Shown: piece after piece, positions 312-4,804 of the stretch
How the letters are laid out: each line of letters begins with the position of its first letter
Position numbering within the stretch: position 1 is the first letter of the stretch
Virus record (IMG/VR): IMGVR_UViG_2698536484_000017
DNA: 8,285 nt
Direction: 5' to 3' (one strand)
From: a virus
Lineage: Duplodnaviria; Heunggongvirae; Uroviricota; Caudoviricetes
The notes under the pieces: model-generated
What the model was told of the DNA's origin: nothing
Seen by the model: the letters and a program-made list of their open reading frames with translations, nothing else
Database searches by the model: none
Made by a program: the position numbers and the translations under genes

Positions 312-2288
312 TCAGCTGATACTGATGCCTGCGGTGGCTTTCTTCATCACCACAACCAGCAAATCGCTGATACTTGCTGTGGGATACCAGTCATTTACCA
401 GCCATGCTGACACCGAAAACTCCAGCGTCATGTGACCGTGACCGGCAGGCATATCAATAACGCCACTGTAAATCAGCGTATTATCCAGCGCGGTACGGTT
501 ATAAATTTCAGCACCGTTTTTCCGCACTATCAGACGGCATGAGGAGTAAATATCAGTATGCTCTCTCTCATGTTTAGCGCCGCTGAATGCCACCGCAGGA
601 ATAACAATCTGCCGGTCAAACGGCTGATCGTCATAAACCCTGACGGTAATGGTCCCTGATGGCCACCGTTCCGGTGCACGGGAGTCCCGGGGGAAAGCTT
701 TGCCCACTGTTTTAACGAGATCGCCTTCAATCTGGTTCGCGGACAGTTTTCCCAGAACCCGACAGTTCTCGTTAATCGTGACGTTGTTGAGCGTCCCGGA
801 GTTCGCATTCACGTTACCGCTGATATCGGCATTTTTCGCCGTCAGCCGCCCATCCGGTGTCAGGGAAAATGCCGGAGGATTACCGCCGCTGGTAATGGTG
901 GGAGCCGTCAGGCGCTTCAGGAACACGTCGTTCATGAATATCTGATTGCCCTGCGCCACAAACATCGGCGTTTCATTCCCGTTTGCCGGGTCAATAAATG
1001 CGATACGGTTAGCGGCAACCAGAAACTGACTCAGTTTGCCTTCCTCCGTGTCCTCCATGCTGAGGCCAATACCCGCGACATAATGTTTGCCGTCTTTGGT
1101 CTGCTCAATTTTGACAGCCCACATGGCATTCCACTTATCGTTGGCGTCCTTCCACTCTTTCGAAAACTCCTCCAGTCTGCTGGCGTTATCCTCCGTCAGC
1201 TCGACTTTTTCCAGCAGCTCCTTGCCGAGATGGGATTCGGTTATCTGGCCTTTGAAAAAATCCAGGTAACCTTCCGCATCATCGCTCGCCCGACCGACAG
1301 CCTCCACAAATGCCGATTTGCCAACAGTGTTCACACTACGGATATAAAAATAATAATCATGGCCCGGTTTGATATTGATACTGGCGGCTATCCAGTACAG
1401 CGCCGTGCCAAGATAGCGGGCTGTGGTTTCAACCTGCCTGATATCGGTAATCCGCTTTTCCGAGAACCAGAACTCAAACTGTACCGTCGGATCATAAACG
1501 GCAAGATGCGGCGTTGCGGTTATCTGAAAATAGCCCGGCGTCAGCTCAATCCGCGACGGTGCTGCCGGTGCGGCAATCCGGAACGATACCGATGCCGGAT
1601 CGCCCTGCTGCCCCCAGGCATTTGCCGCCCGGACTGTCAGCCTGTAGTTTCCCAGGGCCAGTTGCGTGAAGCGGTATGTGGTTTCCGTCGTCCGGGCCGT
1701 GCTGACCAGCCGCTCACTGCCGTCGTCTGCTGCCACAGTCAGGCGAAGCATAAAGCTCACACCCTTCACCACCTTCGGCGTGTCCCATCGCGCCAGCACC
1801 TGATATTCCCCGCTGTCTGCAGTGACTTCTGCGATCAGGTGCTGCACCGCTGGCGGCGTGACACCATTCACCGTGCCACTCTGTTCGCCGTCAAAGTGCG
1901 CCCCGTTATCCACGATGGCCTCTTTTTCCGGCACATGCTGCACGGCGGTGATGGCATACGTGCCGTCGTCGTTCTCACGGATACTCACGCAGCGGAACAG
2001 TCGCTGGCGCAGCGTCGGCAGCTTCAGCCCCCATACGCTGTATTCAGCAACACCGTCAGGAACACGGCTCACTTTTACCTTCACGCCGTCGGTGACGGAC
2101 TGAACCTCCACGCTGACCGGATTGCCACTTCCGTCAACCAGGCTTATCAGCGTGGTACCGGAGGATGGCAGCGTGATTTCACGGTCGAGCGTCAGCGTCC
2201 GGGTCTGGCTGTTCACCGCCAGCACACGACCACCGGTGCTGATACCGGCATAGTCATCATCACAGATTTCAATGACATCGCCCGGCAC
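312..2288 (-). CDS. J: Tail tip attachment / host specificity protein J, C-terminal fragment, separated from the N-terminal part by a frameshifting tandem duplication (likely pseudogene fragment)
   Basis: The 658-aa ORF aligns by eye with lambda J from about residue 480 to the end ([46 protein letters not shown]... FN3-like central region ...LGISIS). The J frame is actually open upstream to about 2318, reading [15 protein letters not shown], so J homology begins at the duplication junction near 2303. The start shown in the ORF track is an alternative start codon inside the protein, not a true initiation site. Confidence 0.8.
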
Positions 2289-2303
2289 ATGGCGAAGCCC
2301 TTC
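1208..2303. repeat. Copy 1 of a ~1097-bp direct tandem repeat inside the J gene
   Basis: Sequence from about 1208 (tttccagcagctc...) to 2303 (...gacatcgcccggcacatggcgaagcccttc) recurs at +1097 bp. Marker strings ccagcagctc at 1211 vs 2308 and aatgacatcg at 2271 vs 3368 confirm the offset. The plus-strand ORFs 1822..2103 and 2919..3200 are 93-aa near-identical twins at the same offset. Confidence 0.9.
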
Positions 2304-4804
2304 ATTTCCAGCAGCTCTTTACCGAGATGGGATTCGGTTATCTTGCCTTTGAAAAAATCCAGGTAACCTTCCGCATCATCGCTCGCCCGACCGACGGCCT
2401 CCACGAATGCCGATTTGCCAACGGTGTTCACACTGCGGATATAAAAGTAATAATCATGGCCCGGTTTGATATTGATACTGGCGGCTATCCAGTACAGCCC
2501 CGAGCCAAGGTAGCGGGCTGTGGTTTCAACCTGCCTGATATCGGTAATCCGCTTTTCCGAGAACCAGAACTCAAACTGTACCGTCGGATCATAAACGGCA
2601 AGATGCGGCGTTGCGGTTATCTGAAAATAGCCCGGCGTCAGCTCAATCCGCGACGGTGCTGCCGGTGCGGCAATCCGGAACGATACCGATGCCGGATCGC
2701 CCTGCTGCCCCCAGGCATTTGCCGCCCGGACTGTCAGCCTGTAGTTTCCCAGGGCCAGTTGCGTGAAGCGGTATGTGGTTTCCGTCGTCCGGGCCGTGCT
2801 GACCAGCCGCTCACTGCCGTCGTCTGCTGCCACAGTCAGGCGAAGCATAAAGCTCACACCCTTCACCACCTTCGGCGTGTCCCATCGCGCCAGCACCTGA
2901 TATTCCCCGCTGTCTGCAGTGACTTCTGCGATCAGGTGCTGCACCGCTGGCGGCGTGACACCATTCACCGTGCCACTCTGTTCGCCGTCAAAGTGCGCCC
3001 CGTTATCCACGATGGCCTCTTTTTCCGGCACATGCTGCACGGCGGTGATGGCATACGTGCCGTCGTCGTTCTCACGGATACTCACGCAGCGGAACAGGCG
3101 CTGGCGCAACGTCGGCAGCTTCAGCCCCCATACGCTGTATTCAGCAACGCCGTCAGGAACACGGCTCACTTTCACCTTCACGCCGTCGGTGACGGACTGA
3201 ACCTCCACGCTGACCGGATTGCCACTTCCGTCAACCAGGCTTATCAGCGTGGTACCGGAGGATGGCAGCGTGATTTCACGGTCGAGCGTCAGCGTCCGGG
3301 TCTGGCTGTTTACCGCCAGCACGCGCCCGCCGGTGCGGATACCGGCATAGTCATCATCACAGATTTCAATGACATCGCCCGGCACATGGCGAAGCCCTTC
3401 TGCGCCCACGCTGAAGTCCACGGTCTGCGTTTCCAGCAGTTCTGTTTTAATCAGCCACAGCCCGGCGCGGTGTGCCTGCCCCCGGCTGGTACAGCCAAAG
3501 GCATCCATCTTCGTGACGTTACGACCGTAACGGGCAATGGCCTGCGTGTCCTCCACAAGCTCTGTTGCCGTCTCCCAGCCATTGTCCGGGTCAATCCAGT
3601 TCACCTCAACGGCATTATGGCGGTCCTTCAGGGCGCTGAAGCTGTAGCGGAACGGCGCGCCATCATCCGGCATCACCACATTACTGCGGTTATAGGTCCA
3701 CACCTTATCCGACGGTCGGTCCTGCACGAACGTCAGCGTCTGCCCGTTCCATACCGGCATACAGCGCATCGCCGAGCAGAAATCACTGAGCACATCCCAC
3801 GCCTTGCGCTGCGTGGTCAGCCAGGCATTACAGGTGATGCGCGGCTCCGTGCCGCCAAAGCCGTCCGGCACCGACTGGTCGCAGTACTGGCCGATGACAT
3901 ACAGCGCCCATTTATCCACATCCGCCGCACCAAGACGTTTCCCCATGCCGTAGCGCGGATGGGTCAGCATATCCCACAGACACCAGGCCGGGTTGTTGCT
4001 GTATGCCGGTTTTAACGTTCCGTCCCAGATACCGCTGTATTGCCGCGTCTGCGGGTTATAGTTCGACGGCACCTGCAGAATGCGCCCGCGAAGATGATAA
4101 TTACGGCTCACCTGCTGGCTGCCGAACTGCTCCGAGTCCACCTGCACGCCGACCAGTACCGTGTTCGGGTAGCACTGTTTCACATCGATGATTTCGGTGT
4201 ATGACGACCAGAGCGTTTTGTTCTGCAGCTGGTCTGTGGTGCTGTCCGGCGTCATCCTGCGCATCCGGATATTAAACGGGCGCGGCGGCAGGTTATCCAC
4301 CACCACCGAGGCCAGATACTGCGACGTGGTTTTGCCCTTAATGGTGATGTCTTTTTCCGTCACCCAGCCACCGTTACGTTGTATCTGAACCAGCAGGCGG
4401 ACTTCCGACGGATTCCGGTCACCCTTTGAGGTGGTTTCCACCAGTGCCTGCACGCCGAAAGTAAAACGCAGACGGTCAATGTTTGCCGACGTGATGGTCC
4501 GGGTGATCGGCGTGTCATATTTCACTTCCGTACCCAGCACCGTCTCGGAGCCGGAGGATTCAAAGCCCTCAGGCGGTGTCTGCTCCTGCTCACCTGCCCG
4601 GAACACCACCGTGACGCCGGAGATATTGGTATTCCCCTCACTGTCCAGCACCGGCGTACTGTTCAGCAGCACGCTTTTTAATCCATCCACCGGACCTTCA
4701 ACCGGCCCTTCGCTGATGGCATCGATCACACTCAGCAGCTGCGTGGACTTCAGGTTGTCCTTCGCTTCGCGCGGGGTATGCCCCTTACTGCTACCTTTAC
4801 CCAT
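2213..4804 (-). CDS. J: Tail tip attachment / host specificity protein J, N-terminal fragment; frameshifted at the duplication junction, with an out-of-frame tail of about 30 codons
   Basis: ATG at 4804..4802 preceded by GGAG/GAGGA. The protein [34 protein letters not shown]... is near-identical to the lambda J N-terminus and colinear through about residue 817 (...[17 protein letters not shown]). After the junction at about 2304 the frame reads [30 protein letters not shown] and stops, which is not J sequence. Confidence 0.85.
2305..3400. repeat. Copy 2 of the ~1097-bp direct tandem repeat inside the J gene
   Basis: Same as copy 1. The copies abut head-to-tail with about 1 nt between them (junction around 2303-2305). 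By eye a central core of about 600 bp is identical, with substitutions clustered toward both ends. Confidence 0.9.

Follow-up and report, generated by a model that had tools for sequence, protein, structure and literature searches.

An 8,285-nucleotide stretch of viral DNA in IMG/VR (record IMGVR_UViG_2698536484_000017), the whole of which is referred to here as the window, carries a tail-tip gene J that is interrupted by a tandem repeat. The locus raises the question of whether the repeat is a genuine lesion of a prophage gene, a duplication with some function, or a product of sequence assembly.

A tandem repeat within a lambda-like tail operon

Read in the sense of the minus strand, on which all of its genes lie, the window opens with the 3' part of the tape-measure gene H (7593..8285), which runs off the right end and was identified by Pfam Tape_meas_lam_C and by the annotation of relatives. 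It is followed by the minor tail genes M (7267..7596; Phage_min_tail) and L (6569..7267; Phage_tail_L, with the exact protein present in many E. coli contigs), the tail tip gene K (5821..6564; Prok-JAB and NLPC_P60, the JAB and NlpC/P60 peptidase domains, in a 247-aa form from the ATG at 6564) and the tail assembly gene I (5282..5923; Lambda_tail_I). Beyond J lies the 5' part of lom, the Ail/Lom outer-membrane protein gene (1..244), which runs off the left end and whose translation from the ATG at 244 is MRKVCAAILSAAICLSVSGAPAWA...; Ail/Lom is likewise annotated directly downstream of J in relatives. The gene order H-M-L-K-I-J-lom is shared with lambda, and the window DNA is ~93-94% identical to lambda-type phages. 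A difference from lambda is a small lipoprotein-like ORF of 112-116 aa between I and J (4871..5221, minus strand), found in the ORF list and beginning MNKTILFCTIIALTGC. It has no Pfam match, its exact protein is recorded as "lipoprotein" or "hypothetical" in E. coli S88, and it is an accessory gene inserted into the tail operon.

Within J, two units lie head to tail with a period of 1097 bp. Copy A (1208..2304) is the downstream unit in the sense of J, and copy B (2305..3401), the upstream unit, contains J codons 469-833 and flanking bases. Ungapped alignment of 1208-2303 with 2305-3400 gave identity at 1076 of 1096 positions at an offset of 1097, with no insertion or deletion, bearing out the colinear pair of ~1097-bp segments put forward in the preliminary description. 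Tandem Repeats Finder, for which the longest period is 500, returned nothing, and a scan of offsets from 20 to 4000 was used instead; apart from 1097, no offset exceeded 50 matches per 100 bases, indicating that the repeat is not due to chance. The copies differ by 20 substitutions and by the junction base, A at 2304 versus T at 3401, making 21 sites in total. Of the 20 differences within the 1,096 aligned bp, 16 are synonymous, and the substitutions are clustered near the junction (at 1221-1413 and 2001-2240, counted along copy A). Between these clusters is a 587-bp core, designated haplotype X, that is perfectly identical in the two copies (1414..2000, with its partner at 2511-3097). The junction base (2304..2304) matches neither 1207 nor 3401, both of which are T. 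The window consists of A, C, G and T throughout, with no N and no gap mark, a point in favor of a duplication that is present in the DNA itself.

Reading frames of J and searches for the junction

That the repeat lies in J had been claimed from the open reading frames, and it was confirmed by the Pfam domains and by end-to-end alignment of the protein reconstructed with a single copy to lambda gpJ (PDB 8iyk, 8k35 and 8xcg), residues 1-1130 to 1-1131 (over residues 1-1130 with 8iyk chain J, E = 0, 2330 bits, for the form designated P0001 below). The reconstructed protein also shares its domain order, FNIII-A_GpJ, Phage-tail_3, Ig_J, Ig_J_second, Phage_Tail_Tip and Ig_GpJ_C, with lambda gpJ and with intact relatives. 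Whereas J of lambda is uninterrupted, J of the window is split by the out-of-frame repeat, and no single J frame exists as written. The arithmetic given for this shift, 1097 = 3 x 365 + 2, holds. According to the ORF list and Pfam, the first reading frame, ORF1 (2213..4804, minus strand, 863 aa), contains J residues 1-833, then 30 out-of-frame codons past the junction and a stop; 30 nonsense codons had been anticipated, but the ~817 J residues proposed for this frame proved to be 833. Its domains are FNIII-A_GpJ, Phage-tail_3, Ig_J and Ig_J_second. The second, ORF2 (312..2288, minus strand, 658 aa), contains J residues 474-1131 from a GTG that is its first possible start, with the domains Ig_J, Ig_J_second, Phage_Tail_Tip and Ig_GpJ_C. 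Ig_J and Ig_J_second are therefore found twice, as the last two domains of ORF1 and the first two of ORF2. Look-up in a gene-position collection found no record of the exact ORF1 product as a gene product, and none of the exact ORF2 product. Programmed frameshifting over the junction was ruled out, as CTGGAAATGAAGGGC is without a slippery motif.

The uninterrupted frame is regained in every single-copy reconstruction. As the preliminary description had predicted for removal of one copy, deletion of either copy or recombination within the core gives a single ORF of 1131 codons (3396 nt with the stop). The product is intact at any crossover point, and collapse products differ from one another at no more than four residues (490, 768, 769 and 821).

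We searched for the junction in other sequences. A 70-bp query spanning it had no match in 5,426 complete E. coli genomes, a phage collection or a plasmid collection, and a 24-nt junction pattern had no match in GTDB representative genomes, IMG/VR or JGI metagenomes. Across the six collections searched, the junction thus has no support from independent genomes. E. coli S88, which has the exact 116-aa lipoprotein-like ORF, is among the genomes searched and was rejected as the source because it lacks the junction. In all close relatives the equivalent span measures 7,189-7,207 bp, versus 8,285 bp here. A window-specific 30-mer was absent from GTDB and present in 47 metagenome and IMG/VR contigs, of which those that align in the J region are only ~93-95% identical (one 86%) and do not belong to the lineage of the window.

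If the repeat is real and has a function, J could serve as a reversible host-range on/off switch operated by RecA- or Red-mediated collapse, or as a two-piece protein in which ORF1 supplies the hub and ORF2 the fiber and receptor-binding domain. We consider such a functional arrangement very improbable. It would agree with the intact state of all collapse products and their four or fewer variant residues; with the end of the J sequence of ORF1 at residue 833, near a boundary in the solved structures (chains 1-835 and 830-995); and with the candidate GTG of ORF2, 16 nt past the junction in the sense of J and with GAAGGG 9 nt upstream. Against it, conservation is zero, the junction, ORF1 and ORF2 each being unique; a slippery sequence that might restore the frame is absent; and ORF2 has nothing that would give its product a physical link with the hub. 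Selection for a switch or a split gene should also make it recur in related prophages, and none was seen in 64 fetched loci or in the 5,426 complete genomes. It is just as hard to credit the switch in its specific form, in which an unstable out-of-frame duplication would keep J off and recombination at induction would restore J in some genomes, yielding a few crossover-dependent variants.

Allele composition of the two copies

The closest intact single-copy J is that of NZ_CP141863.1 (locus L001). At all 20 differing sites L001 sides with the outer half of the repeat: it equals copy A at 11 sites in 1221-1413 and copy B at nine sites in 3098-3337. The outer halves and the flanks are therefore of one haplotype, and only the inner ends, on either side of the junction, are foreign to it. 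From 3401 to 8285 the window and L001 are separated by eight substitutions over 4,885 bp and by no indel, and the C-terminal module of J is a different allele from that of L001. The inner end of copy A (2001..2303), which has nine differences from copy B and L001, is a natural J allele unlike that of the flanks, with one mismatch to J of strain A25 over 314 bp. The inner end of copy B (2305..2510), which has 11 differences from copy A and L001, is the common J allele; its best match is at 99.5% with one mismatch, and 604 records match at 99% or more. Private bases are present in the inner ends, T at 2001 and A at 2503. The inner ends are nevertheless natural alleles of an ordinary kind, since a single mismatch separates each of them from J genes of complete genomes, and the differences between the copies are natural polymorphisms rather than sequencing noise. 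Mostly synonymous inner ends of natural allele type are what reads from a second prophage are expected to contribute.

Four single-copy reconstructions were compared, composed of the outer ends, of the inner ends, of copy A alone or of copy B alone. The outer reconstruction is exactly P0001, an E. coli J protein of 1131 aa that is found on five contigs, in a search of ~15 billion proteins; among the same ~15 billion, no exact protein was found for the inner, copy A or copy B versions. Collapse within the core also yields exactly P0001.

A duplication that arose in place from one parental sequence would be expected to give identical copies. Here the copies differ at their inner ends alone, where they match other natural alleles, while the cores and outer ends are of one haplotype, and mostly synonymous, allele-type differences that lie only beside the junction indicate that this is not a simple in-place duplication. 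An origin in an allele that already carried both inner ends together with an X-type core was also considered and rejected, as the best match among 5,426 genomes was 98.0% and none was exact. A real duplication would therefore have to be a complex one, in which an illegitimate, essentially homology-free head-to-tail join inactivated J and a second J allele in the cell supplied the foreign tracts. Such an event is a credible alternative, to which we give somewhat less than even weight. A single complex event involving template switches could account for it, as could transfer from a J allele already in duplicate or gene conversion at a later time. Donor alleles would be at hand, since E. coli genomes contain a median of two and a maximum of 15 J-like places, and the natural polymorphism of the copies and the intact J that is obtained from collapse at any point, P0001 in the case of the core, both suit a duplication of this kind. 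Bacterial duplication junctions with microhomology or without homology have been described (PMC11721125). Spontaneous bacterial tandem duplications resemble the window in having head-to-tail units, little or no homology at the junction (PMC11721125) and a long identical core that permits loss of a unit. In contrast to fresh examples, in which the copies are identical, the window has tracts of another allele flanking the junction, and its unit is small, lies within one gene and inactivates that gene.

The demands on a real event are nevertheless considerable. It requires either a mosaic donor that is unobserved at the 98.0% limit given above, or two or more additional events in symmetrical positions about the junction, and that junction occurs in no other sequence searched. 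Tandem duplications of such a kind are expected to be unstable, and this one would have had to last through the extra events. If it is real, ORF1 would be without the tip fiber and receptor-binding domain, ORF2 would be without the hub, and the prophage would make no infectious particles on its own; homologous recombination in the 587-bp core would drop one unit and restore J in a subpopulation.

Repeat edges and the proposed joining of assembly pieces

Both edges of the repeat fall on points of variation among J paralogues. Among 48 related J genes, the site homologous to 2304 is T in 24, G in 12, A in eight and C in three, making the right edge one of only five four-state sites among the 3396 positions of J. 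On the left, the edge lies 2 nt away from X1210, the homology breakpoint that dominates in the 64 fetched loci searched and at which 24 HSPs start. By rough estimate, the chance of both coincidences is ~2e-6 under strict definitions and ~3e-4 under lenient ones. We see no mechanistic reason for a real duplication to have its edges at a four-state SNP and a module boundary, whereas ends at points of paralogue divergence would be expected of falsely joined assembly pieces. Against such pieces, the branch points expected of a k-mer graph do not align exactly with 1208, and alleles of the class with a break at X1210 have no long exact words in common with the window immediately to the right of it. 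Two readings of base 2304 are available: it closes copy A, from an allele with A at this site, or it is a one-base spacer. A first reading of this A as non-templated filler or a converted N was weakened by the four-state site and by the presence of A in eight of the 48 relatives; an A that represents a natural allele state would give a clean 1097-bp unit, and this favors a real duplication.

Our best reading of the repeat, held with a modest degree of confidence, is that of a false duplication formed by the end-to-end joining of two overlapping contigs. It is favored because of the allele pattern, the exact natural J protein given by the outer reconstruction, the unique junction with its microhomology of at most 1 nt, the edges at points of J-paralogue variation, the joins in related draft contigs, and the intact state of every other gene together with the close match to L001 right of the repeat. 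Two assembly pieces would have ended in a part of J that is common to several prophages of one genome, the first extending from lom rightwards to 2303/2304 and the second from H leftwards to 2305, with a true overlap of ~1.1 kb. The final 200-300 bases of each piece may have drifted to another J allele, in which case the overlap would have been missed and one piece placed directly after the other, with a spacer of one base at most. The true locus most likely contains one intact copy of J, encoding the 1131-aa tail-tip and host-specificity protein of a lambda-like E. coli prophage, and the undisrupted allele exists, as the known J on five contigs.

Joins of this type are found in other records. 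In the related IMG/VR draft contigs L019 and L051, single-N scaffold joins are present, and for four of four Ns the edge of a direct repeat is no more than 2 bases away. L019 contains a tandem 1.4-kb false duplication of L/K/I laid out as overlap, spacer and overlap, and the same layout is seen in the window as 1208-2303, one base, and 2305-3400. The joins in L019 and L051 share with the window head-to-tail copies that are similar and not identical, at most one base between them, and a location in a lambdoid block of tail genes that is present in multiple copies. They differ in that their spacer is N and their differences run along the whole overlap, whereas the base in the window is A and the differences there lie only within ~300 bases of the junction. 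An A in place of an N, and with it the absence of a scaffold-join mark from the window, speaks against a false duplication, as does the spread of the differences over the entire overlap in L019. If 2304 is the natural last base of a 1097-bp unit, the join would lack a spacer altogether; scaffolders do not usually leave joins of that form, and this too counts against it. Furthermore, a de Bruijn contig cannot create a junction without supporting reads, so a false duplication requires a separate joining or merging step. We infer that the window was assembled by such a join.

Of the three options offered in the preliminary description, the assembly artefact is thus favored and a complex real event is possible, while a decaying cryptic prophage is unsupported because all other genes in the window are intact. 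The repeat is ordinary whether it is false or real, and offers little novelty. A real repeat would add one more to the private lesions by which prophage genes are inactivated; its one notable feature would be that tracts of a second J allele flank the junction, a pattern that would point to multi-template recombination between co-resident prophages. If it is an artefact, the tail genes of lambda-like prophages, with several copies per genome, attract false duplications and pseudogenes in draft assemblies. Two further examples of false duplication occur among the 64 fetched loci, and false duplications in such assemblies would inflate counts of defective prophages and of frameshifted J genes. 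In either case the biological importance of the repeat is small.

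Frame-shifting tandem repeat in gene J

Every gene of the window is carried on the minus strand, in the order H (3' end), M, L, K, I, a small lipoprotein-like ORF, J and lom (5' end), which corrects the preliminary description with respect to strand. The plus strand of the window is C-rich (2567 C, 2008 G). The small ORF between I and J (4871-5221, minus strand, 112-116 aa) has a lipoprotein-type signal (MNKTILFCTIIALTGC) and matched no Pfam family. The DS26-1 prophage has sodC there instead, on the opposite strand, and given these different occupants the I-J gap seems to accommodate accessory genes.

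J starts at 4804 and contains two 1097-bp units arranged head to tail, copy A (1208-2304) and copy B (2305-3401). When all offsets from 20 to 4000 were scanned, 1097 was the sole outstanding self-match, with the runner-up reaching just 50 matches per 100 bases. As had been proposed, positions 1208-2303 are colinear with 2305-3400 at this offset, and the gap-free alignment is identical at 1076 of 1096 positions, with 587 bp of perfect identity (1414-2000 and 2511-3097). The copies are not identical, 20 substitutions separating them. The aligned stretches are divided by a single base, A at 2304, whereas 1207 and 3401 are both T.

In the sense of J, the upstream copy runs from 3401 to 2305 on the minus strand and covers J codons 469-833. 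Because 1097 = 3 x 365 + 2, the frame is lost past residue 833, and the first of the two resulting minus-strand reading frames, ORF1 (863 aa), stops 30 codons on, ending at 2213. The frame shift and the approximately 30 nonsense codons had been described correctly, whereas the number of J residues preceding them is 833 and not ∼817. The second frame, ORF2 (658 aa), corresponds to J residues 474-1131, and its GTG at 2288, the earliest codon at which the J frame could restart, is located in copy A, in agreement with the restart anticipated within the other copy. ORF1 has the Pfam domains FNIII-A_GpJ, Phage-tail_3, Ig_J and Ig_J_second, and ORF2 has Ig_J, Ig_J_second, Phage_Tail_Tip and the receptor-binding Ig_GpJ_C. 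Removal of one copy was expected to give a single ORF of ∼1131 aa, and an intact 1131-aa J is indeed encoded by each of the four single-copy reconstructions (keep-A, keep-B, outer and inner). Over its entire length, the reconstructed J can be aligned with structures of lambda gpJ. The window gene clearly belongs to the lambda gpJ family, with which it shares sequence, domains and gene order; the uninterrupted frame is the sole feature that fails. The overall observation therefore stands, once strand, residue count and identity of the copies are corrected.

Allele composition of the two copies

The substitutions between the copies form two clusters, 11 at unit positions 14-206 and 9 at 794-1033, and 16 of the 20 are synonymous, indicating natural allele differences rather than decay or sequencing noise. 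Since the copies of a simple in-place duplication should be identical, such an event is excluded. Among intact J genes, that of NZ_CP141863.1 is the closest; to the right of the repeat (3401-8285), this locus and the window are separated by 8 substitutions over 4,885 bp and no indels. It has the copy A base at each of the 11 first-cluster sites and the copy B base at each of the 9 second-cluster sites. Therefore, the window consists, in order, of a flank, outer end and core belonging to one haplotype (X), a foreign tract (2001-2303), the junction, a second foreign tract (2305-2510), and then core, outer end and flank of X again. Both cores are X-type, other alleles differing from them at ∼25 core sites, and each foreign tract is one mismatch off common natural alleles. 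Among ∼15 billion proteins, the outer (X) reconstruction alone of the four has an exact match, an E. coli host specificity protein J encoded on five contigs (P0001). Among 5,426 complete E. coli genomes, both foreign ends were never found together with an X core in one allele, the best match being 98.0%.

T at 2001 (synonymous) and A at 2503 (Thr to Ser, codon 768) are absent from the best-matching J genes of these complete genomes and could be markers for the donor allele. The window is itself a mosaic (312-888 versus 889-8285): with one repeat unit left out it is ∼99.5% identical to NZ_CP141863.1 from ∼860-890 rightwards, and further left, the receptor-binding C-terminal part of J is a different allele. 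The best complete-genome match of a 312-2303 query was strain KV7, at 97.7%.

Junction and edges of the repeat

A 70-bp query across the junction (2304/2305) had no match in the 5,426 complete E. coli genomes, 50,697 phage records and 72,556 plasmids, and a 24-nt pattern had none in GTDB representative genomes, IMG/VR and JGI metagenomes. The closest relatives span the window in 7,189-7,207 bp and therefore have one copy. By exact look-up in the gene-position collection, neither ORF1 nor ORF2 is recorded as a gene product.

Comparison of J with 64 fetched relatives placed both unit edges at unusual positions. Window position 3401, homologous to the junction base, is among only five four-state sites in 3,396 J positions (T 24, G 12, A 8 and C 3 in 48 related J genes). 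The left edge, 1208, is 2 nt from X1210, the dominant homology breakpoint between J alleles, at which 24 HSPs begin; J homology ends between 1125 and 1210 (X coordinates identical) in 22-24 loci. At this breakpoint lies the module boundary that precedes the tip fibre (J residue ∼833), and the ends of solved chains (residues 1-835 and 830-995) coincide with it. By rough estimate, random breakpoints would rarely fall on both features (2e-6 under strict definitions, 3e-4 under lenient ones). In 21 related loci, homology to the window begins only at position 30, inside lom, so that the window extends leftwards past another common allele breakpoint by 29 nt, and the window might be a whole short contig.

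Origin of the repeat

On balance, we lean toward a false duplication by assembly. Two assembly pieces would have terminated in the conserved stretch of J that is present in several copies, the last 200-300 bases of each following the J allele of another prophage, and although truly overlapping by ∼1.1 kb they would have been put end to end. Such a false join would explain in one step why the outer parts are X and the inner ones foreign, why the X protein is present elsewhere, why the junction is unique, where the edges fall and why the operon is otherwise intact. When every fetched locus was compared with itself, single-N scaffold joins were seen in two draft-derived IMG/VR contigs, L019 (N at 3113) and L051 (N at 1745, 5710 and 12781), with all four Ns at most 2 bases from a direct-repeat edge. 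L019 has a 96%-identical tandem false duplication of ∼1.4 kb over L/K/I (1536-4470), laid out as overlap, N, overlap. End-to-end joining of overlapping contigs therefore does occur in this gene block. The window repeat is like known false duplications at scaffold joins, but is without their N: the junction base is A, which may be a natural allele state, in which case there would be no spacer whatever, and exact k-mer branch points fit imperfectly.

The sequence is free of any gap mark and homology-free junctions are known in bacteria (PMC11721125), and we tentatively entertain a real duplication in which a second J allele served as template or donor. The repeat is like known spontaneous tandem duplications, but its copies are not sister copies; a real event would require an unobserved mosaic donor allele or several symmetric events, and would leave the edge positions without a reason. 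A functional role of the arrangement, as a switch or as a two-piece J, has no support and is very improbable, with nothing conserved and a frameshift signal absent. There is new biology in neither the assembly reading nor the real-duplication reading. If the duplication is real, J would be null, with ORF1 lacking the fibre and receptor-binding domain and ORF2 lacking the hub, and recombination within the 587-bp core would give back exactly the natural J protein.
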